Source: a virus. From it: a DNA stretch of 64,000 bases. Under the pieces are notes generated by a model. It was not told where the DNA came from and ran no database searches. It saw nothing but the letters and a program-made list of their open reading frames with translations. Shown in pieces: positions 33,029-56,903 of this stretch (the stretch's first letter is position 1; each line of letters starts with the position of its first letter). Both the position numbers and the translations under genes were made by a program. Where the stretch lies: the IMG/VR virus record IMGVR_UViG_3300037502_003888, positions 36,643-100,642 of that record. One strand, 5' to 3'.

Positions 33029-33029
33029 C

Positions 33030-34580: not shown

Positions 34581-34886
34581 ATGGACCCACAAGATTTCTA
34601 TCAACAGGCGCGACAGAGATTTGATCACGAAACAGCGCGTCGTGTATTGCGCGAAAAATATCAGGCCAAGCTAAATTTTGGCTTTGCTGGTGGCATGTTC
34701 AAGGCCACTCCCGAACTCATGGTATTCCTGGCCACATGGCCTCACGACACCATGGTGCTGCTGGATCTCTACGAAAATCCCATAGAAGTCAACCGGCCGG
34801 AACTGTTGGAGATCATGCAGCAGCGCTGGCAAGAACAAATGAACGCCTGGCACGCAGAATTACAAAAACTCACAGCCCAAAGATGA
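34581..34886 (+). CDS. Hypothetical protein
   Basis: 101-aa ORF right after the promoter; ATGA-coupled to the next gene. Confidence 0.7.
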   Translation: MDPQDFYQQARQRFDHETARRVLREKYQAKLNFGFAGGMFKATPELMVFLATWPHDTMVLLDLYENPIEVNRPELLEIMQQRWQEQMNAWHAELQKLTAQR

Positions 34887-35686
34887 CCACGGGCGCAGTG
34901 ATTTTGGCCTATGACACCGCTGGCACGGCGTATGTCGACATGGCGGGATGGTGTGCTGCCCGAGTGCAACAATGGTTGGACGTACCTGTGAGCCTCATCA
35001 CAGACCGTGACGTGGATGACAGTAGATTTGATCAAGTGATCACGCACACCACTGATGGTCTCAATCTCCGATATGATCCATCAGCGCGCCGACAATTGCC
35101 TTGGCATAACCACACACGCTGCGATGTGTTTGATCTCTCGCCATATGATCGTACCTTGGTGCTGGACGCGGATTTCGTGATCAACAGCACGGACCTCCGT
35201 GACATCCTGCACCGCGGGCCATCGTTTCTGGCGCATCGCAAGGCCTATAATCTCGCCACAGGACTTGAACTGTGTGAGCTCAATGAATTTGGGCGATATC
35301 GCATGCCCATGTGGTGGGCCACGGTGATTATTTTTGATCGCAATCGTGAAAATCATATCATGTTTGAAGCCTGGCGCATGATACGGGATCATTGGCATCA
35401 CTACTGCAATGTCTACAGCATCGATCAAAAACTTTTCCGCAATGACTATGCCATGAGCATGGCCTTGGCTCTGATGTCAGGACACACCCTGCAGGTGCCG
35501 GCCATCCCCTGGAATTTGGCCACAGCCATGCCTGGAACCGAACTCTCACTATCCCAAGATCAACGGGAGTTCCGTCTGTCGTATCGCGACAGCCAAGACA
35601 GGATTCGTTACATCACACTGTGTGATCAAGATTTCCATGCCATGGACAAAAAACATCTAGGAGATATCGTTGCCGGATCTTCGTGA
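34883..35686 (+). CDS. GT-A glycosyltransferase-like protein (GT8-like)
   Basis: LSPYDRTLVLDADF DxD motif, WATV and FRND; start reassigned to the ATGA overlap at 34883. Confidence 0.7.
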   Translation: MTTGAVILAYDTAGTAYVDMAGWCAARVQQWLDVPVSLITDRDVDDSRFDQVITHTTDGLNLRYDPSARRQLPWHNHTRCDVFDLSPYDRTLVLDADFVINSTDLRDILHRGPSFLAHRKAYNLATGLELCELNEFGRYRMPMWWATVIIFDRNRENHIMFEAWRMIRDHWHHYCNVYSIDQKLFRNDYAMSMALALMSGHTLQVPAIPWNLATAMPGTELSLSQDQREFRLSYRDSQDRIRYITLCDQDFHAMDKKHLGDIVAGSS

Positions 35687-36404
35687 ACGCGGTTACTTGA
35701 TACCGGCCTTTGACACTGAGCACATAGATTATCAGCGCTGTGCCCAGCAGTTGCGAGACAGCATCTTGGCCTGGCATCCCACGGCAGACGTAACCATAGT
35801 GACTCTGGAACAATTACCCTACGGCGATCAAGGTGGACAGGCCAATGATTGGCAGCTATGGCATGTGAGCCCTTATCATGAAACCATCAAGCTCGAGGCC
35901 GACATGTTGGTCAGCAGTCCCATGGATCACTGGTGGAATCTTTTCCAGCTTCGCGACATGGTGATCAGTGTGGGAGCGCGAGATTTTTATAGCCAGCCTG
36001 CGCAGTCTAGATATTACCGTGAAACGTTTGATCGCAACGATCTACCTGATGTATACAACGCCATAACTTATTGGCGCTACAGTCGAACCGCCAAGGAATT
36101 TTTCCAGTGGTGTCAGCGCATCTGGCAGCAATGGGCTGTCTACAGGTCTCTGCTGCGCTTCAGCGATGATATTCCCACCACCGACGTGGTGTATGCCATG
36201 GCGGCCGTGATCATGGGCGTGGATCGCGTGACCTTGCCTGCGCTAGGTCCCACCATCGTACACATGAAACAACACATCATTGGCACGCAAGGTCCAGATT
36301 GGACGCAAGAACTGATATCAGAATATCACCACGGCAATCTCAGGATCAACACTGTGGCACAATGGGGCTGTGTGCATTATGTCAAGAAAGATTGGAAACC
36401 ATGA
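35670..36404 (+). CDS. GT-A glycosyltransferase-like protein, paralog of the upstream gene
   Basis: RGYLIPA, VSPYHETIKLEADM, TTDVVYA and VHMK; TTG start after AGGAG. Confidence 0.65.
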   Translation: MPDLRERGYLIPAFDTEHIDYQRCAQQLRDSILAWHPTADVTIVTLEQLPYGDQGGQANDWQLWHVSPYHETIKLEADMLVSSPMDHWWNLFQLRDMVISVGARDFYSQPAQSRYYRETFDRNDLPDVYNAITYWRYSRTAKEFFQWCQRIWQQWAVYRSLLRFSDDIPTTDVVYAMAAVIMGVDRVTLPALGPTIVHMKQHIIGTQGPDWTQELISEYHHGNLRINTVAQWGCVHYVKKDWKP

Positions 36405-36715
36405 CTCTGGGCCTAGCTGATGTGTATCCCGTGCCACCACAGTTGTTTAGACTGTATCATGATGCCCAAGGGCGTCCGCTTTTTTACAGCATGCAGGATC
36501 TACCAGGGTTGTACATCGACATATCAGTGGAAGAATTCCACCAAGCCAAATTCCGCGTGCGCGTGGTCAACGGACGCATAGAACCCATGCCGTTACCGCT
36601 GTATCCTCGGCTAGTTCCCAGTGATCATGGCCAGCTGTGTCATAAACAAGACGTGTGCATCATAAGCCAAGATGCCGACGCACAACATTGGAGCCTCAGC
36701 GATGAAACGAATTGA
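36401..36715 (+). CDS. Hypothetical protein
   Basis: ATGA-coupled start at 36401; overlaps the next gene. Confidence 0.6.
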   Translation: MTLGLADVYPVPPQLFRLYHDAQGRPLFYSMQDLPGLYIDISVEEFHQAKFRVRVVNGRIEPMPLPLYPRLVPSDHGQLCHKQDVCIISQDADAQHWSLSDETN

Positions 36716-37628
36716 TGTAGCAGATCTAGATTGTATATTCCTCACCTATGATGAGCCACAGCGTGAAGAATTTTGGGCCAAGCTGCGCAACATAGTGCCC
36801 TGGGCCAAGCGAGTTGATGGTGTCAAGGGCAGCGATGCTGCGCACAAGGCTGCTGCTGAAACCAGCAGCACAGAAAGATTCATACTGGTGGACGGAGACA
36901 ATCTCCCCGATGCTGGATTTTTTAATCTTGTGTTGGAATTCGCCTCGCCGGAATGGGAACGGGCAGTGTTTCGTTGGAGGGCTCGTAACCACGTCAACGG
37001 TTTGATGTACGGCAATGGTGGCATCTCCAGCTGGACGCGGGAATTTGTTCGCAGCATGCGCACTCATGAAAACACCGACGGGCGGGCAGAAACCCAGGTT
37101 GAATTCTGTTTTGATCCCTTGTATTGGCCCATGCACGATTGTTACAGCACCACTTATCCCAATGGTTCACCGTTCCAGGCCTGGCGTGCAGGATTCCGCG
37201 AGGGAGTAAAGATGTGCCTCAACAAAGGAGTCAAGCCCAGCCTGGCTGAATTCCAGGCCCAGGTGCATCAGCGCAATCTCGATAATCTCACTGTGTGGCA
37301 CAACATTGGCATGGATGCAGAAAATGGTATCTGGGCCATGGCCGGTGCGCGACAAGGCACATACATGACCATGCTGACACAGTGGAACTATCGTGAAGTA
37401 CAGGATTTCCAAGCCCTGGAGAGATTGTGGCGCACTGTGGAACACACAGATCCCAGAGTCATGGCCGGCAACGTGGGCATAGAGCTGCATGCGCAGTTGG
37501 CCCTGCCAGTGTCGATGTTGGAAGCCGAACAGAGCGCTTTTTTCAAACACCACTATCGCAGTGACTGGCACAATCTCGGTGTCATGACACGAGAGATGGA
37601 TGTGATCCGCCGCAGGGAAGGTTGGTAA
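36702..37628 (+). CDS. GT-A (GT2-like) glycosyltransferase
   Basis: IFLTYDE, RVDGVKGSDAAHKAAA, FILVDGDN (DxD) and AWRAGFREG. Confidence 0.7.
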   Translation: MKRIDVADLDCIFLTYDEPQREEFWAKLRNIVPWAKRVDGVKGSDAAHKAAAETSSTERFILVDGDNLPDAGFFNLVLEFASPEWERAVFRWRARNHVNGLMYGNGGISSWTREFVRSMRTHENTDGRAETQVEFCFDPLYWPMHDCYSTTYPNGSPFQAWRAGFREGVKMCLNKGVKPSLAEFQAQVHQRNLDNLTVWHNIGMDAENGIWAMAGARQGTYMTMLTQWNYREVQDFQALERLWRTVEHTDPRVMAGNVGIELHAQLALPVSMLEAEQSAFFKHHYRSDWHNLGVMTREMDVIRRREGW

Positions 37629-37632
37629 CGCC

Positions 37633-39030
37633 GTGACCTCCAAGGGAGATCAGAGTGATTTCATGGGGCGCGCACAGACCATGCATGACCAGTTGGGTCC
37701 TGCCATGTGCCTGGCCAAATGGAAACAGGTGAGCCTGCATCTCACCACCGGACAGAACAACAGTTGCTATCATCCGCCCCTGCATGCTATATCACCCGAG
37801 GACATCGCCCGTGATCCCGGTGCCTTGCACAATACCCAGCACAAAAAACAACAGCGGGTCATGATGTTGCAAGGTCAGCGTCCCGCAGAATGCCAGTACT
37901 GTTGGAACATGGAGGATCTCGGCAAGCTGTCAGATCGGCATTATCGCAGCGGCGAACCCTGGGCCGCCATTGATTTTGATCGCATCCAAGCCAGCACAGG
38001 GCTGGAAGATGACGTGATCCCCAGTTATGTAGAAGTAAACTTCAACCATGCCTGCAACCTCAAGTGTAGTTACTGCAGCCCACAGTTCAGCAGCAGCTGG
38101 GCCGACGAGATCGCACGTCATGGTGCCTATCCCACCAGCCAGCCACACAATGATCCTGCCCATTTCCAAGGCAGTCGCAGGCCCATACCCGTGCGTGAGC
38201 ACAACCCCTATGTAGAAGCGTTCTGGCAGTGGTGGCCCACGCTGTATCCACAGTTGGTGCATTTCCGCATGACCGGCGGTGAGCCGCTCATGGACCGCAA
38301 CACGCATCGCGTGCTGGACTATGTGATCGAAAATCCCAGCGCGAAACTGCATCTCAATGTCACCAGCAATTTTTCCGTGGATGAGCGACTATGGCAAAAT
38401 TATCTCGCCAAGGTCAAGACCATCTGTGATGGACGCATTGAACATTTCATGCAGTACGTCAGCGTGGATGGCTGGGGCGCACAGGCCCAGTACATGCGGC
38501 ATGGCCTGGATTTCGATCTGCTCTGGGATCGCGTGAATCAGTTCCTCACTGAAATACCCAGTTACAGCAGCATCACTTTCATAGTGACCATGAACAATCT
38601 GTCAGTGACCACACTGGAAAGTCTGTTTGCGGGCATCCTGGGCCTGAGGAAAACTCACAGCGAAACATATCAGAGGGTGTGGTTTGACACACCGGTGTTG
38701 CGAGAACCGGCCTGGCAGAGCCTGCAGATCCTGCCCGAAAGTTATGCTGACCATCTCGAACATCTCTGGGCCTGGATGATACGACAACGTGAACTGCCCA
38801 CGGATCCCTATCATGGTTTCAAGGACTTCGAAATACAACGGCTGGATCGTGACATAGCATGGATGCGCGAGGGTCACAACATGGAGCCAGCGCGCCTCAC
38901 ACAGCTCCGCGCAGATTTCTGGCGTTTTTTCTCCGAGCATGATCGCCGCCGCGGCACTGATTTCCTGGCCACTTTTCCCGAAATGCGCCAGTGGTGGGCG
39001 GAATGCCAACGCTGCGCTAACCTCGGTTAA
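37633..39030 (+). CDS. Radical SAM protein with N-terminal Twitch-type Fe-S domain (1 of 5)
   Basis: CNLKCSYC and TGGEP; N-terminal C..KW...SCYH...ECQYC. Confidence 0.9.
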   Translation: MTSKGDQSDFMGRAQTMHDQLGPAMCLAKWKQVSLHLTTGQNNSCYHPPLHAISPEDIARDPGALHNTQHKKQQRVMMLQGQRPAECQYCWNMEDLGKLSDRHYRSGEPWAAIDFDRIQASTGLEDDVIPSYVEVNFNHACNLKCSYCSPQFSSSWADEIARHGAYPTSQPHNDPAHFQGSRRPIPVREHNPYVEAFWQWWPTLYPQLVHFRMTGGEPLMDRNTHRVLDYVIENPSAKLHLNVTSNFSVDERLWQNYLAKVKTICDGRIEHFMQYVSVDGWGAQAQYMRHGLDFDLLWDRVNQFLTEIPSYSSITFIVTMNNLSVTTLESLFAGILGLRKTHSETYQRVWFDTPVLREPAWQSLQILPESYADHLEHLWAWMIRQRELPTDPYHGFKDFEIQRLDRDIAWMREGHNMEPARLTQLRADFWRFFSEHDRRRGTDFLATFPEMRQWWAECQRCANLG

Positions 39031-39038
39031 ATATCACC

Positions 39039-40379
39039 ATGCAAGATCTCGAATTCCGCCAGCAGGTGCTGGATCCAATCAGTGACAGTTTCTGTGGTGC
39101 CAAGTGGTACAATGCCACGATATGGTTGGGGTCGGGACAGACCACCAGCTGCCATCATCCTCCCGCGCATCACGTAAATATCGAGGATGTCAAGGCCAAT
39201 CCCCGTGCCCTACACAATACCCCGCAGAAAAAACAGGACCGGGAGGCCATGCAGCAGGGACGGAGGCCCGCGGGTTGTGAATATTGTTGGAAAATCGAAG
39301 ACATGGGCCGCGACGCTGTCAGTGACCGCGTGTATAAGAGCCGCATATATCCCATTGAGGCTCTCCATGCTGCGGCTGCGACTGCACCAGATCAAGACAT
39401 CAATCTACGCACTCTCGAGATCTCCTTTGATCGCACTTGTCAGTTCGCTTGCTCTTACTGCAATCCTGCTTTCTCTAGCACCTGGGTCAAAGACATCCGT
39501 GCTAATGGAGCATACACCCATCTTGTTTCCGACGGTCGTAACCACTTCACTCACACTCATGATAGCGCTCAACTTTTTCGCTTTGGAGAACGCAATCCAT
39601 ACGTGGACGCTTTCTTTGAGTGGTGGGAATCTGATCTACATCACACCCTGGAGGAGCTGAGGATCACCGGAGGTGAACCCTTGATGTCGGGTTACACCTG
39701 GCAGCTCATTGACTGGTTCCGTGACAACCCCGGCCGCAGCCGCACACGTCTGGCCATAAACTCAAATCTCGGCATGTCTTGGGATGTGATACAGCGCTTG
39801 TTAGACAGTTGTGCTGGCATAGAGCTTGATGTCTACACCAGCATGGAAAGCATAGGTCCACATGCAGAATATATCCGCGACGGCTTGGATTACACTGAGT
39901 GGTGCATGAACATGGAGCGTGTCATGCACAGCGGTAAATTACGGGCACTGCATGTGATGTGCACCATCAATGCCCTGTGCTTGGAAAGCCTGCCGGAATT
40001 CCTGACATATCTCATGCTGTGGAAACAGCAACATGGTGCTGACTTTCCCAATTTTACCTTGAACATCTTGCGTTTTCCCAGTTTCCAATCGCCCTTGGTG
40101 CTGCCCGACACAGTGCGCACGCATCACAGAGATAGATTGCAGTCATGGTTGGATCGTTGGGGCAACAACATGGCCTTGCAGCAACACGAACGTAATCATG
40201 TGCAGAGGCTCATAGATTATCTCGACGTGGTCAAGACACCACACAGTGATGCCTTTGATATGCCGGCACTGCACAATGACTTTGCACAGTTCTATCGGCA
40301 GTATGATCAACGCCGCGGCAAAGATTTCCGCGCTGCGTTTCCAAATCTACGGGAATGGTATGACTCAATATCAATATGA
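39039..40379 (+). CDS. Radical SAM protein with N-terminal Twitch-type domain (2 of 5)
   Basis: CQFACSYC and TGGEP; N-terminal CGAKW...SCHH...GCEYC. Confidence 0.9.
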   Translation: MQDLEFRQQVLDPISDSFCGAKWYNATIWLGSGQTTSCHHPPAHHVNIEDVKANPRALHNTPQKKQDREAMQQGRRPAGCEYCWKIEDMGRDAVSDRVYKSRIYPIEALHAAAATAPDQDINLRTLEISFDRTCQFACSYCNPAFSSTWVKDIRANGAYTHLVSDGRNHFTHTHDSAQLFRFGERNPYVDAFFEWWESDLHHTLEELRITGGEPLMSGYTWQLIDWFRDNPGRSRTRLAINSNLGMSWDVIQRLLDSCAGIELDVYTSMESIGPHAEYIRDGLDYTEWCMNMERVMHSGKLRALHVMCTINALCLESLPEFLTYLMLWKQQHGADFPNFTLNILRFPSFQSPLVLPDTVRTHHRDRLQSWLDRWGNNMALQQHERNHVQRLIDYLDVVKTPHSDAFDMPALHNDFAQFYRQYDQRRGKDFRAAFPNLREWYDSISI

Positions 40380-41619
40380 CAGCAGTGACCTAGCTCGACC
40401 CGTGGAGCTCAACACACGCGAAGAGTTCTTGCTGAAAAAAAGCCGCGTGTTCTGCATCTATCCATGGATACATTTGCATGCCTATCCCACCGGCGAGGCC
40501 TATCCTTGTTGTCATGCTGAGATGACGCATCCTGTGGGCAATTGCAAATCACAGACTCTCAGAGAGATCTGGCAAGGACCTGAGATGACTGGACTGCGAG
40601 ACAACATGTTGAACGAACGTGAAAGTCCTGCGTGTGCTAGATGTTATGAACAGGAAGCCTCGGGCTTCTTTTCAGGACGTCGCAGTGCCAACAAACATCA
40701 CGGGCATCACATCAAAAAATTACAAGACAATCCTTTTGAGATGACCTACTGGGATATCCGCTTCAGTAATCTCTGCAATCTCCGATGCCGCAGTTGTGGT
40801 CATATCTTCTCAAGCCAGTGGTATCAAGACCAAGCTGCCTTGGCCGGACCTGAGTGGCGCAAAACGCATCAGGTCCTGAACTATGCTGGCCGCACTGACA
40901 TCGACATGTGGGAACAGTTGCTGCCACACATTGATTACGTGGAGCAGATTTATTTTGCTGGCGGCGAACCTTTGCTCATGGAAGAACACTATCGCATCCT
41001 AGATGAGCTGGAACGCCGCGGTAGGTTTGACGTGCGATTGATCTACAACACCAATTTCACACACACGGATCTGAAAGGTCGTTCGGTGTTTGATTACTGG
41101 CGGCGATTTGAATCCGTGGCCGTGGGAGCCAGTCTTGATGCCATGGGCCCCAGGGCCGAATACATCCGCAAAGGCACTGACTGGGCACAGGTGGAAGCCA
41201 ACCGTCGTGCCATGCAAGAGATCTGCCCCCAAGTAGACTTCTACATTTCGCCCACGCTCAGTGTCATGAATGCCTGGCATCTACCTGACTTCCATCGGGC
41301 CTGGGTAGAACAGGGATTCATACAGGCACAGGATCTCAATGTCAACATCCTGCAAGATCCACGATATTATCGCATTGACATCGCTCCCCGGGGTTTCAAA
41401 CAGCAACTCCAGGATCGCTACCAGCAGCACTTGGAATGGTTGGCACCGCAAGATCCGCTGCAGAGAGCCACTGTGGGATTCCAGAGTGCTGTCACATTCA
41501 TGATGGCCACAGACAACAGCCATCTCTTGCCAGAATTCTGGCAGCGCACCCAGAAGCTGGATCATCTGCGACGGGAAGACGTGCTGGCCACATTGCCAGA
41601 ACTAAAGGAACTACAGTGA
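40360..41619 (+). CDS. Radical SAM protein with N-terminal Twitch-type domain (3 of 5)
   Basis: CNLRCRSC and AGGEP; N-terminal FCIYPW...PCC...GN...CARC; start reassigned to ATG 40360. Confidence 0.9.
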   Translation: MTQYQYDSSDLARPVELNTREEFLLKKSRVFCIYPWIHLHAYPTGEAYPCCHAEMTHPVGNCKSQTLREIWQGPEMTGLRDNMLNERESPACARCYEQEASGFFSGRRSANKHHGHHIKKLQDNPFEMTYWDIRFSNLCNLRCRSCGHIFSSQWYQDQAALAGPEWRKTHQVLNYAGRTDIDMWEQLLPHIDYVEQIYFAGGEPLLMEEHYRILDELERRGRFDVRLIYNTNFTHTDLKGRSVFDYWRRFESVAVGASLDAMGPRAEYIRKGTDWAQVEANRRAMQEICPQVDFYISPTLSVMNAWHLPDFHRAWVEQGFIQAQDLNVNILQDPRYYRIDIAPRGFKQQLQDRYQQHLEWLAPQDPLQRATVGFQSAVTFMMATDNSHLLPEFWQRTQKLDHLRREDVLATLPELKELQ

Positions 41620-42836
41620 AAATCCCGCACGATCAATTCTGTGTGCTGCCCTGGATCAGCCTAGAAGCCAGCCCCATAGGCACAGTGCGACCCTGCTGCC
41701 TGGCCCTGGACGAGATACCCGACGATCATGGCAACAAATTCAATCTCTCCACGGCTGATCTGTCAGAGATACAGAGCAGCGCTCACATGACCATGTTGCG
41801 ACAGCAATTCTTGGCCCAAGAACGACCCGCCACTTGCCAGCGCTGCTGGAACGAGGAAGATGCTGGTCGCACCAGCAAACGCATGCACACGCTGAATCGA
41901 CTGCAACACATGATCCAGGACGAGTCATGGGACTCGCAGGCCAAACCCCTGCAGTTCTTGGATCTCAAACTGGGCAACATCTGCAATCTAAAGTGCAGGA
42001 TCTGCGGATCGTGGAGCAGCAGCACCTTTGCGGCCGAGGAGCTGGCAGAGATCCCTGATCGAGATCAGCGACGCAGCAGTTTCCACTACACCATGTTGCG
42101 TGCCGGGGCATGGCCCAGGAACAGCCCTGATTTCTGGAGCCAACTGCAGCGCATACTCACACACATACGATACATTGAGTTCACCGGTGGCGAACCATTC
42201 ATGATCGCCGAACATTTTGAACTGCTGCAAACTCTGGTATCACAGGGCGTGGCCGCAAACATAGAGATACACTACAACACCAATGGCACGCATTTCCCCG
42301 AACACGCGCCGGAAATATGGCGACATTTCCAGCACGTGGAAATAGCATTCAGCATTGATGATGTAGATCAGAGATTTGAATATCAGCGCAGCGGTGCCAG
42401 CTGGACCGAAGTCAACGCCAACATCCAGCGCTTCCGTGAACTGCGACACAGCATGTCGAATATCACTCTGCAGGTATGCTGTACAGTGAATATTTTCAAT
42501 GTGTTGTATCTGTCAGAAGTGGCACAGTGGATACACCAGCAAGATTTTGATTTTGTGTACTGGAACATGCTGCATGATGCGCCAGAGTGGAGCATACGGA
42601 ATCTGCAGTGGGCGGCCAAACGTTTCGTAGAAAATCATCTGCGCTGGCAACAGTTCACTGACAGTGATCGCCAGGAGATCAATCGCATCGTGGAATTCAT
42701 GATGTCGGGTGGACTGACCTGGGATCGCAACATCGTTCCGCGCATATTGGAATTGGATCGGCGACGAGGTGAGAGGCTAGACCAAGTGGCACCTTTGTTG
42801 GCCTATGTGATAAAATATGACCCTCCCGCCAAATAA
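41616..42836 (+). CDS. Radical SAM protein with N-terminal Twitch-type domain (4 of 5)
   Basis: CNLKCRIC and TGGEP; FCVLPW...PCC...CQRC; GTGA-coupled GTG start after AAGGA. Confidence 0.9.
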   Translation: MKIPHDQFCVLPWISLEASPIGTVRPCCLALDEIPDDHGNKFNLSTADLSEIQSSAHMTMLRQQFLAQERPATCQRCWNEEDAGRTSKRMHTLNRLQHMIQDESWDSQAKPLQFLDLKLGNICNLKCRICGSWSSSTFAAEELAEIPDRDQRRSSFHYTMLRAGAWPRNSPDFWSQLQRILTHIRYIEFTGGEPFMIAEHFELLQTLVSQGVAANIEIHYNTNGTHFPEHAPEIWRHFQHVEIAFSIDDVDQRFEYQRSGASWTEVNANIQRFRELRHSMSNITLQVCCTVNIFNVLYLSEVAQWIHQQDFDFVYWNMLHDAPEWSIRNLQWAAKRFVENHLRWQQFTDSDRQEINRIVEFMMSGGLTWDRNIVPRILELDRRRGERLDQVAPLLAYVIKYDPPAK

Positions 42837-45229: not shown

Positions 45230-45296
45230 ACTAGAGATACGTTATCGACGCAAGCTGCGTGAACTACGCAAACGCGATCCTTTTATCTACAAATGA
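45195..45296 (+). CDS. 33-aa basic peptide coupled to the carbamoyltransferase (not in the ORF track)
   Basis: GGAG RBS; MNWLHRIWARIKLEIRYRRKLRELRKRDPFIYK; its stop overlaps the next ATG. Confidence 0.7.
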   Translation: MNWLHRIWARIKLEIRYRRKLRELRKRDPFIYK

Positions 45297-46765
45297 AACA
45301 CATCTTGGGTGTGTCTGCGGGATTCCACGACGCTGCTGTCAGTGTGATCGATCACGACGGCAACATCGTGTTTGCCGGGCACAGCGAGCGCTACAGCAAA
45401 CTCAAAAATGATGCCGGCATCAGTCCGGATCTGTTGGAGGATTTGCCTGATGTAGAGTTCAGTGCCATGGCTTTTTACGAACGTCCTTGGGCACACAATT
45501 TACAGCAGTGGATATCCGGTCAGCGCCGCTACAGCCACTGGACCACCTGTGGTGCTCTGCGCCATCATCTCTCGCGCACACCTGTGAACAGCCGGAGTTT
45601 TCCGCACCACCTCAGCCATGCCGCTGCAGGATTCCAGACCTCTCCGTTCAAGAGCGCTGCAGTGGTGGTGATCGATGCCATAGGTGAACTTGACACCATA
45701 TCCATTTATCGTGCGGACTATGACACACAGGGTCAGGCACGATATCGGCGCGTGTGGCGCCAGGGATATCCTCACAGTGTGGGACTGTTTTACAGTGCTG
45801 TGACACAGCGCGTGGGTCTGCGCGCCGGTGATGAGGAATACATCACCATGGGCATGGCCGCCTACGGCACGCCGTTGCACCAGCACTACCTCGCAGACAA
45901 ATTCCTAGACGATGTGGGCACGGTCCGCTTCCGTGAAAATCTCCATCTAGGCATAGCATCAAATGAGCTGGGCTGGATGACGGATCAAGACATAGCGGCC
46001 TGCGCGCAGGCCATCACGGAAAAAATCATTGATGCCGTGATGCAGCGTGCCCGCCAACTCACAGGCGAAAGCAATTTAGTGTATGGTGGTGGAGTGGCCC
46101 TGAATTGTGTGGCCAATCGGCTGCTGGGACGGCATTTTGATCGCATATGGATCATGCCCAATCCCGGTGATGCTGGCAGCAGCCTTGGGGCTGCAGCCTT
46201 GGTGCTGGGACGCAAACTGCAGTGGCACGATGCTTTCTTGGGTCATCTCATACCCGGTGACTATCCCGTGCAGGCCATATTGGCCGAACTGCATCATTCC
46301 AAGATCGCAGGTGTGGCATCGGGTCGCGCAGAGTTCGGTCCCAGGGCTCTGGGCAATCGCAGCCTGCTGGCCGACCCCAGGCTGCCTGACATACGTGACA
46401 GGGTCAATGACATCAAACGCCGGCAGAAGTTCAGACCTTTCGCTCCAGTGATATTGCAAGAACACGCGGATCAATATTTTATCATGCCCCGGGGCTGGCA
46501 ACACAGTCCATACATGCAGACCGTGGCCAGCGTGCGCAGGCCTGATTTGTTCCCTGGCATCACTCACGTGGATTACAGCGCTAGGGTGCAGACCGTGGCG
46601 CCAGGCACTGGGGGTATACGCCAGCTGCTGGAGCAGTGGTATCGAGACACAGGTTGTCCCATGCTGCTCAACACCAGTCTCAATGTGCGCGGTGAACCCA
46701 TGGTCAATGATCGCAGCGACGCTGATAGATTCCAGGATCTCTACAAAGTAAAAGTCTTGAGTTGA
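45293..46765 (+). CDS. Carbamoyltransferase, NodU/CmcH family
   Basis: HDAA, ERYS..K, HHLSHAA, GGVALNC, GDAG, EFGPRALGNRS, FRPFAP and LLNTSLN. Confidence 0.95.
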   Translation: MKHILGVSAGFHDAAVSVIDHDGNIVFAGHSERYSKLKNDAGISPDLLEDLPDVEFSAMAFYERPWAHNLQQWISGQRRYSHWTTCGALRHHLSRTPVNSRSFPHHLSHAAAGFQTSPFKSAAVVVIDAIGELDTISIYRADYDTQGQARYRRVWRQGYPHSVGLFYSAVTQRVGLRAGDEEYITMGMAAYGTPLHQHYLADKFLDDVGTVRFRENLHLGIASNELGWMTDQDIAACAQAITEKIIDAVMQRARQLTGESNLVYGGGVALNCVANRLLGRHFDRIWIMPNPGDAGSSLGAAALVLGRKLQWHDAFLGHLIPGDYPVQAILAELHHSKIAGVASGRAEFGPRALGNRSLLADPRLPDIRDRVNDIKRRQKFRPFAPVILQEHADQYFIMPRGWQHSPYMQTVASVRRPDLFPGITHVDYSARVQTVAPGTGGIRQLLEQWYRDTGCPMLLNTSLNVRGEPMVNDRSDADRFQDLYKVKVLS

Positions 46766-47829
46766 TTCAACATGCTGTTGAATTCTCGATCCAGCACTGA
46801 CAGCAGTCCACCGCGGTAAAAATGATCCCAGTTATGTTGCACGATTGATCGGCTGTGGCGCCATATCTGTGCGCGATCTTGATGGCTGGCGCCGTCGATG
46901 TCGGCCAACAAGGCTGTGACGCGTTCCAGCCTACGTAGGTCGTTGGTTTCTTGATCATAGCTTTCGTCCCATAGATCATGGAAAGTGCGGAATCCATATT
47001 CCTTGAGATATTCTAGTGTGCCCGCTGGTGCCACCGGTATCAACAGCATGCCCAGGGCCATGGCTTTCATGGTCTTTTCAGTGAGATGCGTGCGATCTCC
47101 CCAGTACACGGTTTCCGTGGGCACATAAATCATGCTGTCATGCACTTCGGCATAATTGCCCAGGGTACTGCTGCTCATGAGCTGTTCGTGTTCGTTTTGG
47201 AAAAATCTCGGCAGTTCCAGTGATGCCAGCACATCCACGATGTCAGGATAAGCATGCCGGAACTTGTCGGCCACCACAAGGATGTCTGTGTGTTCGTAGG
47301 GACAGATGCGCGGCACACTGATATGATTGTGCATGAGTCCGTGGCGAGCCAACAGGTACACAAACAACACCCTGTGATCGCGCTCACCACCAATGATCCG
47401 ATTTGGGCTCATAAACGTGCGCCGGGGCATCACACGATGTGCAGGATGTTGCAGCAGGAGATTGCGATCGTAGCCACGATACCAATCCAACGCTGCCCAT
47501 CCATGGAAAAAATAATAGTGTGGTTGCCAGCCGTAAATATCTCGCAATCTACGCAGCTGGCCTCCGCGTTCACTCACTATCACAGCACCAGCACCGCTGC
47601 CCTGGGCGCGATCCATGATCTCGCTCCACAAGAATTGGTGATGTTGAAACTGCAGTGGTTCTTGATCATGCATGACCACATAGGCATGTGGATCAGCGGT
47701 CCGGAAACTCCGGAGATAAGGGATGTCTGCCGATCCGGGTGGATCACAGTAATACATGTCGCAATCAGGGAGATGACGTTGTATCCAAGGCCAGAACACA
47801 GTGTCGTAGATTTCATCGATACGTATCAT
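46741..47829 (-). CDS. GT10-like 'TEKT' family putative glycosyltransferase
   Basis: PTET...HLTEKTMKAM...G.LEYLKEYGFRTF..LWDESYD. Confidence 0.6.
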   Translation of the reverse strand: MIRIDEIYDTVFWPWIQRHLPDCDMYYCDPPGSADIPYLRSFRTADPHAYVVMHDQEPLQFQHHQFLWSEIMDRAQGSGAGAVIVSERGGQLRRLRDIYGWQPHYYFFHGWAALDWYRGYDRNLLLQHPAHRVMPRRTFMSPNRIIGGERDHRVLFVYLLARHGLMHNHISVPRICPYEHTDILVVADKFRHAYPDIVDVLASLELPRFFQNEHEQLMSSSTLGNYAEVHDSMIYVPTETVYWGDRTHLTEKTMKAMALGMLLIPVAPAGTLEYLKEYGFRTFHDLWDESYDQETNDLRRLERVTALLADIDGASHQDRAQIWRHSRSIVQHNWDHFYRGGLLSVLDREFNSMLNQLKTFTL

Positions 47830-50800
47830 GTTTGATATTTTTTATTTGGATCAGCGACCAACGGAGTTGCCTTGGGCTAGGCCTGCCAACAGCATCCAGC
47901 ATGCCCAGAGTCTGTCGAACACGCGGTATTTTTGGATCGCCACATACTTAGCGGACTACAGTGATTGGGACTGGCTTTGGGAGCCACCGCCTTGGCAAAG
48001 CCATCAGAGGCATGCCTGGGCCAGCCAATGGCAACCCGACAGCGGCACATACTTGGTGCCCAGGACCGGCTATCAAGACACCAACTATCACACTTGGCCG
48101 CAGATCCTGCGGTTACCCGACCCCTCGGCATGGCACATTCCACGTGCCGTGGATCCCAACAGCTTTGATTGGAGCTGGCATCCCAATCCCTTGGAACCAG
48201 ATTTTGAATATCACTTTGGCACTCAGTGGCAATGCTCGGGTGGTCCGATATATCCTGGCACAGCAGGCATCAAACTCTGCACGGATCAACGGGCCTTGGT
48301 CTTGCCAGATCGCAACCACTGGTGGATCCCCGATCACATCGACGATCACAGCATAGATTTCAGTTGGCATCCTAGTTTGCTTGAGCCACCGGCTGTGTAT
48401 CATTTTGATGCGGGCCGTGGTTGGCACAACATAGGTGGACCTGAATATCGTGTGCCTGGAGCGATTGGCGTCAAGTACATCCAGGATCTCGCCATCACCA
48501 CTCGTGGTGATCCTCAGTGCTGGTACATTCCCGACTGGATAGATCCTGCCAGCATAGATACCACATGGTGTCCCAATCCCAGTGATCCCGCCTACATCTA
48601 CGAATTTCCCGTGGAGTGGGGCTGGGATCATGTGGGCGGACCCGAGTATCGCGTGCCAGGTGCCCGTGAACGCAAATACGTCACAGATTTCGTGGCACGC
48701 ACACGTCCTGATCCCAGTAACTTTGAAGTGCTGGATCATTTGGATCCACACGACGATGTGTTCCGCTGGCGTCCCAATCCCAGAGACCCCGCGTATGTGT
48801 ATGTGTTTGGTAATCAGTGGTGGTCCGCGGAACAGAGGGCCAGCGCGGTGTATCGTGTGCCTGGAGCCACTGAGATCAAATACATGTCAGAGCCACGGGC
48901 ACGGCGCCTGGCCGTGCCCGAACACTATCGTATTTTGGCACAGGACGCTGAATTTGATCAGTCTTGGGAGCCCGATCCCGGTGACCCCGCCTACATCTAT
49001 GTGTTTGGTAATCAATGGCACCCACCCGAGATCATGCCTACGGTAGAATATCATGTGCCTGGTGCTGAAGAACGCAAGTTCATGGACCATCCACGGGCCC
49101 AGCTCACAGCCACCCACGACGATCTATGGAAAGCACTGGTGCCATGTTCCTGGGATCGCACATGGACGCCGGATCCTGGCGATCCACCTTATATCTATGT
49201 GTTTGGTAACCAGTGGCATCCCGGTGAGATCATGCCCACGCTAGAATATCATGTGCCAGGTGCCACCCAACGTAAATTTGTTGCCGACGTCGCAGCTACG
49301 TTGCCGCCTAGCCGAGAATTCTGGCACATACCCGAAGACGTCGACGCCGAGGCCATAGACTACAGCTGGTGCCCGGATCCTGGTGATCCTCCCTATGTTT
49401 ATCACTTTGGTTCAGAACATCAGACGTCAGTGGGCGTGACCTACACAGTGCCCGGAGCACAGGAAATCAAATTTGCTGGTGACATACCTTTGATTGACCG
49501 CCACCACAAAGCCATGATAGAGTCAGCAGCGTTTTTCATTGACTTTGGCAATCCACTGTCGGCCCAGAGATTCCAAGAGCTGCAGGCTAGATTGCCTGAC
49601 CTCGAGCGTGTGAGATATGTCAACAGCATGTTGGATACCCTGAGACGTTGTGCCCGGCGCAGCGACACGCCGCGTTTTTGGGCCGTGAGCAGCCACAATG
49701 ATTATCGTGATTTTGATTTTTCATGGCATCCCGAGACCTGGCAGCGGGGTATGATACATGTGTTTGGCACGCAATGGAACAAATGGAGTGATACTCTGCT
49801 GGTGAATCGCTGGGAGTTCGAGCGACAGAGCCCCTGGCAGACACAGATCGGAGATTTCTACAATCTCAATTTCGTATCCAATCAACGTGTCACGGCAGCC
49901 ACCGACGCTGCTGATATCATAGTGGTAGATCATGGTAACGCAGAAAGAGATCGTGTGATCGCGGACCTGGGCACTAGGCCCGGCAGAGTGGTACGCACTG
50001 CGAGATATTTTGACAACTATCTAGACACTCTACGTCGCGTGATCGATGACTCCACCCAGTCTCAGCACGTATGGATCTGCAGCACCCTGTGTGATTACAG
50101 AGAGTTTGACTTCTCTTGGCAGCCCGAAGTCTGGCAACGAGACATGATACATGTGTTCGCTTCGGGAAACAACAAGTTTGGGGATACTTTTTTGGTTCCT
50201 GTTGATGCCTGGCGACAGCAACAAAATAAGTTAGAGTTACTGGATTGGTTTGATACAGTGCATTATGTGGCCGACATCTCAGTGCCGCGATGGCCCATGC
50301 CCGTGATACGCCACAGCGAGGACACTCATGTGCAGCAGATACAACATACAGAATTCACAGCACCCTTGATGTTGTTTACAGTCAGTGATCAGCGATTCGA
50401 TCACATACCCACTGTCAGTATCTGGCGAGAGCGCACGGAAACCATCGTGCCTTTGGATTCCGGTGCCGAATCAGTGATAGTGCCACGGCGCGCTGTGGCC
50501 AGTATCCGTACCCAGCTCTATGATTATGCACACATAGACCGCACCCATAGATCCACATACAGTTGTAGCCCGTTGGACATTGTGTTCATCAGCCACGGCG
50601 AGGCCAATGCTGAACGCAATTGGGTTATGCTCCAGGAATCTGTATCCTCATGCCCCAACCAAATCCATCGCATTGACGGTGTCACAGGACGAGTGGCTGC
50701 ATATCAGGCCGCAGCCCAGGTCAGTGCCACGCCATGGTTCTTTGCTGTGTTTGCCAAGCTAGAGATCAACGCAGATTTTGACTGGGCATGGCAACCCGAT

Positions 50801-51259
50801 CGCATGCAGCAGCCCAAGCATTATATCTTCCATGCGCGCAATCCTGTCACGGGATTGGTGTACGGTCACCAGGCCATGATAGCTTACAATCGTGATCTAG
50901 TGATGAGCAACACTGGATCTGGTCTGGACTTCACACTAGATCAGCCACATGAAGTAGTGCCTGTGATATCAGGCACGGCTTGGTATGCTGATAGTGCTTG
51001 GATGGCCTGGCGCACAGCGTTCCGTGAAGCCTTGAAACTACGACACAGCTTGCCGGATGTGGAGAATCAATATCGCCTGCAGCAGTGGCTGGCACCAGGT
51101 CAAGGCGTCAACAGTGAGTGGAGCCAGCGCGGCGCAGAAGATGCTGTGGAATATTACGATAGTGTTGGGGGAGATTTCACAGCTCTGCGGAAGAGCTATG
51201 AGTGGGCATGGCTGTCTAGCTATGCTCTCTTGCGTAGAAATCTAACACCTGATCAATGA
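47828..51259 (+). CDS. 1143-aa protein with tandem Trp/Pro repeats and several degenerate GT-A-like modules
   Basis: The C-terminal domain aligns by eye with 36702..37628 (DIVFISHGE, RIDGVTG, ARNPVTGLVYG, AWRTAFRE); seven central repeats. Confidence 0.75.
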   Translation: MFDIFYLDQRPTELPWARPANSIQHAQSLSNTRYFWIATYLADYSDWDWLWEPPPWQSHQRHAWASQWQPDSGTYLVPRTGYQDTNYHTWPQILRLPDPSAWHIPRAVDPNSFDWSWHPNPLEPDFEYHFGTQWQCSGGPIYPGTAGIKLCTDQRALVLPDRNHWWIPDHIDDHSIDFSWHPSLLEPPAVYHFDAGRGWHNIGGPEYRVPGAIGVKYIQDLAITTRGDPQCWYIPDWIDPASIDTTWCPNPSDPAYIYEFPVEWGWDHVGGPEYRVPGARERKYVTDFVARTRPDPSNFEVLDHLDPHDDVFRWRPNPRDPAYVYVFGNQWWSAEQRASAVYRVPGATEIKYMSEPRARRLAVPEHYRILAQDAEFDQSWEPDPGDPAYIYVFGNQWHPPEIMPTVEYHVPGAEERKFMDHPRAQLTATHDDLWKALVPCSWDRTWTPDPGDPPYIYVFGNQWHPGEIMPTLEYHVPGATQRKFVADVAATLPPSREFWHIPEDVDAEAIDYSWCPDPGDPPYVYHFGSEHQTSVGVTYTVPGAQEIKFAGDIPLIDRHHKAMIESAAFFIDFGNPLSAQRFQELQARLPDLERVRYVNSMLDTLRRCARRSDTPRFWAVSSHNDYRDFDFSWHPETWQRGMIHVFGTQWNKWSDTLLVNRWEFERQSPWQTQIGDFYNLNFVSNQRVTAATDAADIIVVDHGNAERDRVIADLGTRPGRVVRTARYFDNYLDTLRRVIDDSTQSQHVWICSTLCDYREFDFSWQPEVWQRDMIHVFASGNNKFGDTFLVPVDAWRQQQNKLELLDWFDTVHYVADISVPRWPMPVIRHSEDTHVQQIQHTEFTAPLMLFTVSDQRFDHIPTVSIWRERTETIVPLDSGAESVIVPRRAVASIRTQLYDYAHIDRTHRSTYSCSPLDIVFISHGEANAERNWVMLQESVSSCPNQIHRIDGVTGRVAAYQAAAQVSATPWFFAVFAKLEINADFDWAWQPDRMQQPKHYIFHARNPVTGLVYGHQAMIAYNRDLVMSNTGSGLDFTLDQPHEVVPVISGTAWYADSAWMAWRTAFREALKLRHSLPDVENQYRLQQWLAPGQGVNSEWSQRGAEDAVEYYDSVGGDFTALRKSYEWAWLSSYALLRRNLTPDQ
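48131..49488 (+). repeat. Seven tandem ~65-aa protein repeats
   Basis: Consensus W.IP...D...D.SW.P.P.DP.Y.Y.FG.QW......P..EY.VPGA...K[YF]. Confidence 0.85.
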
Positions 51260-52325
51260 TGTATTCTACTTCGAGATCCGTGAGCTCAGGATACATGGGA
51301 AGGCTCAAGATCCTGCGGCTCAAGGCACTGGCCGAGCTCAGGATGTCGGGACCTGGCCACTGCCGGAACACGCCCTGTTCATGCAGCGGTTGGCTGTAGT
51401 GTACACGGGCTTCGATGTGCCGATCCGCCAGCCACTGCTGTAGCTGATCCCGGTGATCCGTGTCGATCACGAACTTATGCACGGCGTGTGTGTCAAAATT
51501 GTGTATGTCAATGAGGCAACGCGCCGGACTTCCCTTGAGACGTGTGATCCAGTAGTTGGCGATGTCACGCCGGCGTCGTTGCCAGGCATCTATGTAACGG
51601 CTTTTGACCGTGAGCTGTGCGCAGTCAACCTCGCTCATGCGACTGTTGGTACCCATGGCGCGATGATTGGGTTTGCCGTTGTCTCGGCACTCCCGCGCGA
51701 AATGCAATAGGTCGCTATGGTCAGTGACAATGGCACCACCGTTGCCATAGCAGTTGAGATTCTTGGTGGGATCAAAACTTATAGCTGCGCTGTGTCCTAG
51801 ACGCTGGCAGTTATTGGCCAACCAATGTTGGGCAGCATCTTCTACGATGGCGATGTTGCGCAATTGTACTCGATCAGCCAAACCTCGATTGTGCCATAGA
51901 TCGTTGATGTCCGCCCCATAGAGGCCTATCATGACCATGGCCTGGCAGGAGTTGATGGCATCCATGGATGTGATGCGAGCTACGCCGTATTCGTCGGTGT
52001 CCATGAACACCACATCCCAGCCCGCACGCATCCATGCATTGGCCGTGGCAGCGTAGGTCAGAGTTGGGATGGCCACCTGCGGTTGCATGGTATGCTGTTC
52101 ACGGAAATACGCTGCCATGATTTCTAGGGCCTGCGTGCCACTGTGACAGGTCACTGCGTATTTGACATGATTACGTCGCGCCAACCAATGCTCGAACTCA
52201 GCGGTGTAGTTGCCGTTCATGACCTGGCCTGATCTCAAGACCTCGTCAGTGATGTCCAGTATTTCCTTGCGCAGGGTGTTGTACTGCCGTTTGACGCCAA
52301 AAAAAGGTACGGTCAGCGTGCTCAA
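51216..52325 (-). CDS. DegT/DnrJ/EryC1/StrS PLP-dependent sugar aminotransferase
   Basis: SGTQAL, VEDAAQ, SFDPTKNL..YGNGG, NSRMSE and LSLPMYPEL. Confidence 0.92.
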   Translation of the reverse strand: MSTLTVPFFGVKRQYNTLRKEILDITDEVLRSGQVMNGNYTAEFEHWLARRNHVKYAVTCHSGTQALEIMAAYFREQHTMQPQVAIPTLTYAATANAWMRAGWDVVFMDTDEYGVARITSMDAINSCQAMVMIGLYGADINDLWHNRGLADRVQLRNIAIVEDAAQHWLANNCQRLGHSAAISFDPTKNLNCYGNGGAIVTDHSDLLHFARECRDNGKPNHRAMGTNSRMSEVDCAQLTVKSRYIDAWQRRRRDIANYWITRLKGSPARCLIDIHNFDTHAVHKFVIDTDHRDQLQQWLADRHIEARVHYSQPLHEQGVFRQWPGPDILSSASALSRRILSLPMYPELTDLEVEYIIDQVLDFYAREHS

Positions 52326-56901: not shown

Positions 56902-56903
56902 GT

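Follow-up and report, generated by a model that had tools for sequence, protein, structure and literature searches.

An uncultured giant lake phage (a jumbo phage) carries a putative radical-SAM sugar-tailoring operon directly behind its tail-fibre genes. In the window analysed here, a stretch of 64,000 nucleotides, a run of co-directional, overlapping genes at 34.6-52.3 kb encodes three GT-A-like proteins, five radical SAM enzymes, a conserved protein (unk385), a peptide and a carbamoyltransferase; downstream of the last lie genes for a GT10-like protein, for a repeat protein whose GT module lacks DxD and for a DegT aminotransferase, with HldE-like, cupin, FkbM and GT2 genes following at 58.6-63.7 kb. 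All these genes had been listed in an earlier note on this DNA and were found where it placed them, and its tightly coupled run is borne out by overlapping same-strand genes with coupled starts and stops. Our best explanation, held with slightly less than even confidence, is that both stretches form a conserved, cytoplasmic, late-expressed module that builds and edits an unusual glycan or glycoconjugate, with a virion protein as the likeliest acceptor.

Layout and conservation of the island

31226..34520, plus strand: two fibre/virion structural genes (products of 600 and 496 aa) with PHROG matches to virion structural and tail-fibre families, syntenic in relatives
34581..34886, plus: p101, small conserved protein, opens the run and is present at 74 of 80 loci
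34880..35686, plus: GTa, putative glycosyltransferase, GT-A/GT8-like, GTb paralogue, D96xD98 invariant in orthologue columns
35670..36404, plus: GTb, putative glycosyltransferase, GT8-like, glycogenin profile match, GTa paralogue, invariant E76xD78
36401..36715, plus: p104, small conserved protein kept in relatives (the ORF of about 138 aa of the earlier note)
36702..37628, plus: GTc, best-conserved GT-like protein, GT-A-type N-domain predicted from the model, invariant D74-G75-D76
37633..39030, plus: rS1, N-terminal-twitch radical SAM, NF033640 at 312 bits, CxxxCxxC in 114 of 114 orthologues
39039..40379, plus: rS2, N-twitch radical SAM, NF033640 match, the paralogue that RsoM2USA retains as well (51% identity)
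40360..41619, plus: rS3, N-twitch radical SAM, NF033640 at 392 bits, Pfam SPASM N-terminal to Radical_SAM
41616..42836, plus: rS4, N-twitch radical SAM, NF033640 match
42817..44115, plus: rS5, N-twitch radical SAM, NF033640 match
44072..45229, plus: unk385, conserved protein, cyclophilin-like barrel with helical insert in the model (AF2 pLDDT 79)
45195..45296, plus: pep33, conserved micropeptide of 33 aa with C-terminus ...RKRDPFIYK, stop codon overlapping the carbamoyltransferase ATG
45293..46765, plus: CmcH, NodU/CmcH-family carbamoyltransferase (Pfam; PHROG 1601), nearest solved structures NovN, GdmN and TobZ
46741..47829 (46741-47673 if the start is residue 53), minus: GT10l, GT10-like protein, position conserved
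47828..51259, plus: rep1143, 1143-aa repeat protein, C-terminal module GTc-like, lacking DxD
51216..52325, minus: DegT/DnrJ/EryC1-type sugar aminotransferase (Pfam, 203 bits)
58619..60103, minus: cupin, HldE-domain-I-like kinase and HldE-domain-II-like nucleotidyltransferase (Pfam cupin, PfkB, cytidylyltransferase)
61440..63755, minus: FkbM-like methyltransferase, 306-aa protein and GT2 glycosyltransferase (Pfam)

The order fibre-p101-GTa-GTb-p104-GTc-rS1..5-unk385-pep33-CmcH-...-GT10l-rep1143-DegT hardly varies across about 150 related viral contigs, five of which belong to complete genomes of 337-364 kb with terminal repeats, and the island stands behind the fibre genes in every relative. 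The synteny that the earlier note had proposed to look for is thus present, and the failure to co-occur in relatives, which it had named as counter-evidence, was not observed: the genes co-occur there, far above chance. Relatives L007 and L008 have the HldE-like and cupin genes within the island, between GTb and p104; moreover, unrelated low-GC phage lineages repeatedly combine GT-like genes, pep33, CmcH and other radical SAMs. These data support a conserved, fibre-linked module; adjacency to fibre genes is by itself no proof of a functional link. The p104 ATG overlaps the GTb stop codon, and searches of Pfam and PHROG gave no family match for p101.

A late-type TAAATA motif is common to the baseplate genes, the fibre genes and the island, and five of its nine occurrences in the window stand 5-25 nt upstream of gene starts, including the following:

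31195..31200, plus: TAAATA (within TATAAATA), late-promoter-like, 25 nt upstream of the fibre gene p600 (motif scan)
39028..39033, plus: TAAATA, 5 nt ahead of the rS2 start codon

The former is likely to start a transcription unit running into the island, and the latter agrees with the late promoter that had been proposed at 39028. A second late promoter, proposed at 63756, is unsupported, since no TAAATA was found there and a tRNA-Ser gene (63764-63856) ends at this place.

Proposed sugar supply and transfer

The gene identities, the intact catalytic motifs, the tight coupling, and the conservation and linkage across relatives are established by the analysis; that the substrate is a sugar, all of the reactions and the acceptor we infer. 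As a first step, the HldE-like, cupin and DegT enzymes would supply activated, partly aminated sugars. The genes at 58619..60103 form a candidate NDP-heptose-type sugar activation set; the heptose kinase/transferase reported there is recovered as an HldE-like kinase and nucleotidyltransferase, but both fall under the equivalog cut-offs, and Pfam found the cupin, FkbM-like and GT2 genes reported at 58.6-63.7 kb. The DegT assignment holds, and the nearest NCBIfam models of this protein are PseC and dTDP-4-amino-sugar transaminases, all under cut-off.

In the second step, the three GT-A-like transferases with their DxD motifs, together with the GT10-like protein, would place these sugars onto an acceptor produced within the infected cell. 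GTa and GTb are paralogous (hhalign 99.3%), and GTb weakly matches glycogenin/GT8 over its N-terminus and DxD region (profile, E 0.02). The cultured, distant Ralstonia phage RsoM2USA has a GTc homologue with 37% identity. The three GT-A proteins of the earlier note are present, with DxD/ExD motifs invariant among orthologues and a GT-A-type model for GTc (pLDDT 68; VIA Z about 7), but none has a Pfam, NCBIfam or PHROG name, and from sequence and model their assignment as glycosyltransferases is weak. The best Foldseek match of the GTc model is the capsid glycosyltransferase A64R of PBCV-1 (prob 0.91), which was counted for a protein acceptor inside the cell. GT10l was correctly noticed and is conserved in position, but its GT10 identity is only a lead (Atlas 0.80), and it is a paralogue of p389-type genes, which are inserted sporadically. 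No Pfam, NCBIfam or PHROG family matches rep1143; the pseudo-GT noticed there is its C-terminal module, which aligns to GTc (E 1e-7) with FAK in place of DGD.

Radical SAM enzymes, carbamoyltransferase and micropeptide

All five radical SAM enzymes reported at 37633-44115 pass the NCBIfam model NF033640 (N_Twi_rSAM; cut-off 170 bits) with scores of 273-392 bits. They have an invariant CxxxCxxC and four N-terminal Cys in common, and these residues are retained in 114-128 orthologues of each. Their mutual identity is low (18-32%) and that of the orthologues of each is high (58-69%), which indicates five anciently diverged and separately maintained functions. As a third step, each would make one distinct radical edit at unactivated carbons, the candidates being oxidation, epimerisation, dehydration and C-C/C-X bond formation.

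A reaction, substrate and structure were looked for in NF033640 and none was found, the family being only catalogued. In rS1-rS5, as in the family generally, the Cys domain for the auxiliary cluster precedes the CxxxCxxC core in the chain; what differs here is that one phage late operon holds five diverged members. They have the radical SAM core and an auxiliary Fe-S domain in common with BtrN and BlsE, which act on sugars, and with anSME, SkfB, PqqE and MftC, which act on peptides, but in the latter enzymes, sugar- and peptide-directed alike, the auxiliary domain is C-terminal. The similarity is far too low for reaction transfer: even the closest radical SAMs of solved structure are very remote (best E 6e-7), and the weak secondary profile matches include BlsE, MoaA, viperin, SkfB and several peptide maturases.

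Bacteroidota loci with N_Twi radical SAMs contain MT-GT2, GT11-like, GT-C-like, polysaccharide deacetylase, GDSL and NodU/CmcH genes, and one NF033640 homologue is fused to GT2. At the same time, in the bacterial locus G080 PhyH and WelO5-type oxygenases take the place of glycosyltransferases, and another homologue is fused to a subtilase, so the family is not exclusively glycan-linked. The reading of the island as glycan synthesis and tailoring has indirect support, namely the bacterial loci, the GT2 fusion, the L007/L008 arrangement and the sugar aminotransferase. TPR and Sel1 fusions also occur in the family and were counted for a protein acceptor inside the cell.

In the fourth step, CmcH with its DPFIYK micropeptide partner would place a carbamoyl group onto a hydroxyl via carbamoyl-AMP, the chemistry expected for its family. 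The carbamoyltransferase is verified by Pfam (Carbam_trans_N 128 bits, Carbam_trans_C 165 bits) and shares the two-domain Kae1/YrdC-type fold family with NovN, GdmN, TobZ and NodU (E 1e-53 to 1e-36), but it is shorter (490 aa versus 576-702) and is preceded by the coupled 33-aa peptide. The peptide noticed earlier is real: pep33 is conserved in 46/46 relatives reaching that position and translationally coupled to both neighbours, and its final ~20 residues are almost invariant, far above unk385, which is only ~40% identical among relatives. As for unk385 itself, it has no Pfam, NCBIfam or PHROG family match, and its model resembles cyclophilin folds weakly (VIA Z about 8). Across many phage lineages pep33 is a near-universal partner of carbamoyltransferases; in 100 of 120 contigs bearing the DPFIYK motif, a CmcH gene follows it in the same orientation. 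The earlier note gave pep33 no weight in its interpretation.

Since the peptide tracks the carbamoyltransferase so widely, a pathway in which pep33 itself is substrate or carrier is a live rival, although we consider it unlikely. Its invariant C-terminal tail would receive sugar (e.g., on Tyr, in the manner of glycogenin self-glycosylation), radical SAM edits and a carbamoyl group, yielding a glyco-RiPP-like product or a small molecule carried on the peptide, as in mycofactocin, PQQ or HypF-HypE logic. SPASM/twitch radical SAMs are classically peptide maturases. The conservation and coupling of pep33, the maturase-like secondary matches, the subtilase fusion and the glycogenin resemblance of GTb would suit such a pathway, as would the trio of rS2-type radical SAM, peptide and CmcH in RsoM2USA, and other lineages in which peptide and CmcH occur together with GTc-like genes and different radical SAMs. 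However, the peptide follows the carbamoyltransferase rather than the radical SAMs: most of the 120 motif-bearing contigs show no N_Twi radical SAM within the fetched stretch, the DPFIYK peptide is absent from bacterial N_Twi loci and from Vibrio phage K566, and no RRE/PqqD-like recognition domain was seen. In addition, DUF5989 (Pfam PF19451), likewise a small protein adjoining a carbamoyltransferase (12/12 bacterial loci), has an L-K-x-L-W-type N-terminal start and a C-terminal PFIY motif in common with pep33. The bacterial protein is encoded downstream, contains a membrane helix and terminates in APFIYTLF, whereas the phage one is encoded upstream, contains a basic helix in its stead and terminates in DPFIYK; the DUF5989 HMM does not match the phage peptide, and the hhalign probability is only 23%. 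The membrane helix beside carbamoyltransferases suits an accessory or anchor role over that of a substrate.

Possible acceptors of the proposed glycan

The module probably builds an unusual, decorated sugar on a phage-made target. Modification of a host polysaccharide, LPS or capsule precursor during infection, e.g., as a superinfection block, appears improbable to us. It would fit the polysaccharide-type loci of the bacterial radical SAM and CmcH homologues, the glycosyltransferase, methyltransferase and UDP-glucose dehydrogenase genes that adjoin the carbamoyltransferases of cyanophages and pelagiphage HTVC008M, and the HldE-like genes, which point to heptose, an LPS sugar; but the island contains no membrane protein, flippase, polymerase, ligase or polyprenyl-phosphate transferase, none of its proteins has a membrane-like segment and all look soluble, and in every relative the module keeps its place in the late structural part of the genome, downstream of the fibre genes, rather than with early or moron genes.

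A phage 5-hydroxymethylcytosine carbamoyltransferase of the same enzyme family was described by Yang et al. 2021 (PMC8670742), where carbamoyltransferases on unmodified contigs adjoin glycosyltransferases. DNA hypermodification, which the earlier note had offered as an alternative (ALTERNATIVES), would here mean decoration of 5-hydroxymethyl-pyrimidines in phage DNA by CmcH and the glycosyltransferases. It could draw on a nearby ThyX gene, but ThyX yields ordinary dTMP and the module lies within a late structural block. Moreover, the active enzymes of PMC8670742 co-occur with ThyA-type (dCMP) hydroxymethylases, whereas the neighbours here are GT-like and neither PF00303 (ThyA-type) nor a C5 DNA methylase was found in the five complete island-bearing relatives (337-364 kb). 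This alternative is thereby weakened, to the point that we regard it as very improbable. A Tet_JBP search of the same five genomes gave no match, its positive control being silent there as well.

A virion protein, i.e., the fibres encoded just upstream, is the most likely acceptor, given the adjacency, the soluble enzymes and the TAAATA motif shared with structural genes; of the virion proteins that the earlier note described as Ser/Thr/Asn-rich, the fibres have only a moderate Ser/Thr content (18-22%). Virus-encoded glycosyltransferases near structural genes decorate virion proteins in the chlorovirus PBCV-1 (capsid; A64R, PDB 2P72) and in mycobacteriophages (Freeman et al. 2023 as cited in PMC12619734). 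Those systems employ glycosyltransferases only, to which the island adds five radical SAMs, a carbamoyltransferase with its micropeptide, an aminotransferase and sugar activation.

Conservation and gene content of the island

The gene island behind the fibre genes, interpreted in the earlier note as a candidate virion-glycosylation system, holds up as a real, conserved, late-operon tailoring module, and most plausibly this module is glycan-directed; of the two late promoters invoked for it, the one at 63756 falls away. The source is an uncultured jumbo myovirus with a record of 100.6 kb in IMG/VR (estimated 29% complete), 64 kb of which are covered by the window, and its baseplate wedge protein shares 32-38% identity with the counterparts in Atu_ph07, Phosso, SCTP-2, the RaK2 group, and RsoM2USA. 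Upstream of the island, PHROG scans identify baseplate hub, wedge, virion, and fibre proteins, and two features lead directly up to it:

15703-30435, + strand: ORF of 4910 aa between the baseplate wedge and the fibre genes, ahead of the island
31226-34520, + strand: two fibre-like genes directly 5' of the island

The C-terminal part of the 4910-aa ORF is 35-58% conserved in relatives.

The genes at 34581-46765 all lie on the + strand, each overlapping or nearly abutting the next, in the order p101, GTa, GTb, a 104-aa protein (p104, with an ATG overlapping the stop codon of GTb), GTc, five radical SAM genes (rS1-rS5), a 385-aa unknown (unk385), a 33-aa ORF (pep33), and a NodU/CmcH-type carbamoyltransferase. 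When the genes were checked singly, the island content read from the sequence alone was confirmed. The DegT aminotransferase further downstream is unambiguous (PF01041 above the gathering score, 203 bits, residues 18-360). Beside it, ORF p172 (52322-52840, - strand) overlaps thyX (52564-53235, - strand) by about 280 nt; the true gene here is probably a shorter one, with a product of about 85 aa that is conserved in relatives at the position between DegT and ThyX.

Co-occurrence of these genes in related genomes, on which the glycan proposal had been made to depend, is borne out. An IMG/VR scan with the radical SAM alignment returned more than 576 relatives, and in the best 80 of them gene order between the fibre genes and the carbamoyltransferase hardly varies. 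A further scan, with the carbamoyltransferase as anchor, revealed after it a variable insert of 0-6 kb and then conserved downstream genes in about 60 loci, ordered GT10-like, repeat protein, DegT, small ORF, ThyX, p242, DUF2201, and MoxR. The carriers include five genomes of 337-364 kb that are complete and have terminal repeats, and one relative (L083) has a reduced island with two radical SAM genes only. By megablast, the island has no match in cultured phages. The distal genes at 58.6-63.7 kb encode a cupin, an HldE-domain-I-like kinase, an HldE-domain-II-like nucleotidyltransferase, an FkbM-like methyltransferase, and a GT2 protein; since HldE-like and cupin genes stand inside the island, between GTb and p104, in two relatives (L007 and L008), these distal sugar-activation genes are tied functionally to it. 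They are interleaved with three phage tRNA genes on the - strand: Arg-TCG (61367-61441), Ser-TGA (63764-63856), and Leu-CAA (63861-63938).

A single-protein scan of bacterial contigs with a radical SAM protein found only two phage-like contigs, both binned into a Haliscomenobacter MAG. These contigs (L084 and L085, 148 and 183 kb, MAG Haliscomenobacter sp. EUL_031) each carry the full set of five radical SAM genes and the peptide, with proteins 71-73% identical, and are either mis-binned phage DNA or a lead to a host in the Saprospiraceae.

Radical SAM enzymes and glycosyltransferase-like proteins

All five radical SAM proteins score above the cut-off of the NCBIfam model NF033640, N_Twi_rSAM (273-392 bits; cut-off 170), at a mutual identity of 18-32%. 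The cysteines of the CxxxCxxC motif (C141, C145, and C148) are invariant across the five paralogues and retained in all 114-128 orthologues of each; four N-terminal cysteines (C26, C45, C87, and C90) are invariant in rS1-rS5 as well, and in rS3-rS5 a Pfam SPASM-type Fe-S domain lies N-terminal to the Radical_SAM core. Each paralogue has its own orthologues at 58-69% identity, which, together with the preservation of the cluster motifs in all of them, argues that the five copies are old and have been separately maintained.

The family to which they belong comprises 5813 clusters at 50% identity with E of 1e-30 or better. Our literature searches found no paper on this N-terminal twitch radical SAM family, and nothing specific on radical SAM enzymes or carbamoyltransferases of jumbo phages. 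The nearest solved structures are remote, and a homologue search with rS3 yielded close same-clade orthologues only, with no functional context. In Bacteroidota, N_Twi radical SAM genes occur in 4 of 400 sampled genomes, besides one phage-contaminated MAG, and invariably in clusters of two to four. Their neighbours in the first of these genomes are a methyltransferase-GT2 fusion, a GT-C-like protein, and a GDSL enzyme; in the second, a polysaccharide deacetylase, a GT11-like protein, a GDSL enzyme, and a NodU/CmcH carbamoyltransferase lie nearby. Some homologues are fused to other domains: TPR repeats (three cases), Sel1 repeats, GT2, and a subtilase. Taken together, neighbours and fusions favour sugar-linked chemistry, possibly on protein-borne substrates. 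The evidence is not uniform: the third of these genomes (G080:C2:1208000-1227999) offers a different, oxygenase-rich context, in which two N_Twi radical SAM genes are accompanied by five PhyH dioxygenases, a WelO5-like halogenase/hydroxylase, a methyltransferase, and a T9SS-secreted protein that has an endosialidase-chaperone domain. The cultured Vibrio phage K566 has four N_Twi radical SAM genes in one cluster (161.5-168.3 kb) with unannotated neighbours; no DPFIYK peptide or carbamoyltransferase was found in the 25 kb examined.

The three proteins GTa, GTb, and GTc, described in the earlier note as GT-A enzymes, are the weakest part of its observation. Scans with Pfam, NCBIfam, and PHROG yielded no family for them, nor for unk385, the GT10-like protein, the 1143-aa repeat protein, p101, or p104, and no curated glycosyltransferase family model (Pfam, NCBIfam, or named PHROG) matched GTa, GTb, or GTc. 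What stands are the motifs invariant in alignments of 14 orthologues each, D96xD98 in GTa, E76xD78 in GTb, and D74-G-D76 in GTc. GTa and GTb are paralogues (hhalign 99.3%), and profile searches against PDB sequences produced nothing more than a weak glycogenin/GT8 match for GTb, running through the DxD region (E 0.02). In the AlphaFold model of GTc (pLDDT 68.5), the structural neighbours of residues 12-157 are all GT-A or nucleotidyltransferase folds, the matches being weak (VIA Z up to 7.4), and the top Foldseek match is the PBCV-1 capsid glycosyltransferase A64R (prob 0.91, E 6e-3). We take the three proteins as GT-A-like and probably active, and do not assign them to any named glycosyltransferase family.

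The remark that the 1143-aa repeat protein contains a pseudo-glycosyltransferase proved right, because its C-terminal module is GTc-like (BLASTP 1e-7) with FAK in place of DGD. The label "GT10-like" for the gene at 46741-47829 (- strand) is a lead only: neither Pfam nor NCBIfam matched PF00852 or an equivalent, the nearest Atlas clusters with a Pfam family carry PF00852 at 0.78-0.80 in a language-model comparison, and the protein matches structurally phage proteins fused to an NDP-sugar epimerase/dehydratase domain. It has a paralogue in the window, a p389-type gene (55789-56958, - strand), with which it has a C-terminal module in common (BLASTP 9e-13). Copies of this pair are sporadic in relatives (L004-L183), standing between different radical SAM genes or after the carbamoyltransferase, and scatter as if mobile. 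The model of unk385 (pLDDT 79) combines a cyclophilin-like barrel with a helical insert, and its structural matches are weak (Z about 8).

The carbamoyltransferase and its micropeptide

The carbamoyltransferase matches both Carbam_trans_N (128 bits) and Carbam_trans_C (165 bits) above gathering scores, and among solved structures NovN, GdmN, and TobZ come closest to it. The pep33 ORF immediately before it (45195-45296) overlaps the end of the unk385 gene on one side and, with its stop codon, the ATG of the carbamoyltransferase on the other. It was found in 46 of the 46 related loci reaching that point, with the last 20 or so residues almost invariant and ending in RKRDPFIYK. In RsoM2USA, an unannotated counterpart lies between orthologues of rS2 (51% identity) and of the carbamoyltransferase (43%); the neighbouring proteins _200, _201, and _203 have no similarity to unk385 or GTb. 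The same phage also encodes a GTc homologue.

A search with a degenerate DNA pattern for K-x-D-P-F-I-Y-K-stop matched at least 120 viral contigs. Among the 120 matches listed, a carbamoyltransferase follows 3' on the same strand in 100, within about 15 nt in 64, and many of these contigs belong to unrelated low-GC lineages with carbamoyltransferases just 29-48% identical. This pattern argues that pep33 is first of all the partner of the carbamoyltransferase. In some of the low-GC lineages (L291 and L187), genes similar to GTa, GTb, and GTc and other radical SAM genes are again present. No DPFIY peptide was found near the carbamoyltransferases of P-SSM2 and HTVC008M. Some relatives (L078 and L016) have two copies of the peptide, and in three other loci (L188, L199, and L250) the DPFIYK tail closes a longer frame with a Cys-rich, C-x-x-C-type segment, no carbamoyltransferase being found in the fetched stretch.

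The peptide may be an accessory or anchor subunit, or a regulatory leader peptide; by analogy with HypF-HypE, a precedent for a substrate tail, it may also serve as such a tail. A precursor of a radical SAM-dependent RiPP should track its maturase; pep33 tracks the carbamoyltransferase, not the N_Twi radical SAM genes, and the bacterial and Vibrio-phage loci of the latter are without a DPFIYK peptide. A serious rival to the glycan module is nonetheless a peptide-scaffolded product, in which the micropeptide would be the carrier or primer and the glycosyltransferase-like enzymes, the five N-twitch radical SAM enzymes, and the carbamoyltransferase would build on its invariant C-terminal tail. 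We consider this unlikely; if true, the product would be glycosylated, radically edited, and carbamoylated, and the pathway would be of an undescribed kind spread over hundreds of phage genomes.

A similar arrangement exists in bacteria. DUF5989 (PF19451) occurs in 114 of 301 Bacteroidota genomes and lies directly 3' of a carbamoyltransferase homologue in 12 of 12 loci; it has a membrane helix and ends in APFIYTLF. Like pep33, it is a small protein adjoining a carbamoyltransferase, with N-terminal L-K-x-L-W and C-terminal PFIY. The resemblance is suggestive, and homology could not be demonstrated: the DUF5989 HMM matched neither ten phage peptides nor a six-frame translation of the source record, and hhalign gave a probability of 23%. 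Nothing specific on DUF5989 was found in the literature.

Candidate acceptors and apparent late transcription

The acceptors weighed (DISCRIMINATING) were DNA, the host envelope, and the virion. Carbamoyl modification of DNA has a precedent, as a phage carbamoyltransferase of the same family carbamoylates 5hmC; active 5hmC carbamoyltransferases co-occur with ThyA-type hydroxymethylases, and those on unmodified contigs adjoin glycosyltransferases (PMC8670742). In contrast to that system, in which a ThyA-type dCMP hydroxymethylase supplies 5hmC (PMC8670742), the source record lacks PF00303, as do five complete relatives, with control genomes positive. A C5 methylase is likewise absent from the five relatives (control positive); a Tet_JBP search of the same genomes gave no match, the control being silent too. 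We largely reject DNA as the acceptor and give it very little probability. Remodelling of the host envelope is opposed by the lack of a membrane-like segment in any island protein, by the absence from the island of a flippase, polymerase, ligase, and initiating transferase, and by the locking of the module into the late structural block.

The link to the virion consists of adjacency to the fibre genes and shared late-type motifs. The exact TATAAATA occurs once in the window, and the shorter TAAATA is the informative motif: five of its nine occurrences sit 5-25 nt before gene starts, far beyond chance given that about 0.75% of positions would qualify by our own arithmetic. The genes behind these five encode a virion protein, the baseplate wedge, the p600 fibre, rS2, and a small ORF; with the motif before structural, fibre, and radical SAM genes alike, the island appears to be transcribed together with the fibre genes. 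Virion glycosylation would fit this, though it is not thereby proven. The late promoter proposed at 63756 was rejected: no promoter motif is present, and the end of a tRNA-Ser gene lies close by, at 63764.

A few mycobacteriophages and giant algal viruses are known to glycosylate their particles with enzymes of their own, and these are plain glycosyltransferases. Relative to this, the island would be a variant centred on a radical SAM family for which our searches found no paper, distinguished by the coupling of glycosyltransferase-like enzymes to five members of that family and by the carbamoyltransferase-micropeptide pair, the peptide having been overlooked by gene callers. The module is retained in hundreds of abundant freshwater jumbo-phage genomes. 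Knowledge of its product would assign chemistry to a family of more than 5,800 clusters at 50% identity and account for the widespread "Nol-like" phage carbamoyltransferases, and could show how giant phages shield or tune their fibres. As RsoM2USA carries a reduced module, the question is testable in culture.

At two sites, 39028-39041 and 54477-54464 on the - strand (TAAATATCnnCATG), TAAATA stands exactly 5 nt before the ATG. Since a ribosome-binding site would not fit into this gap, the late transcripts may lack a leader.
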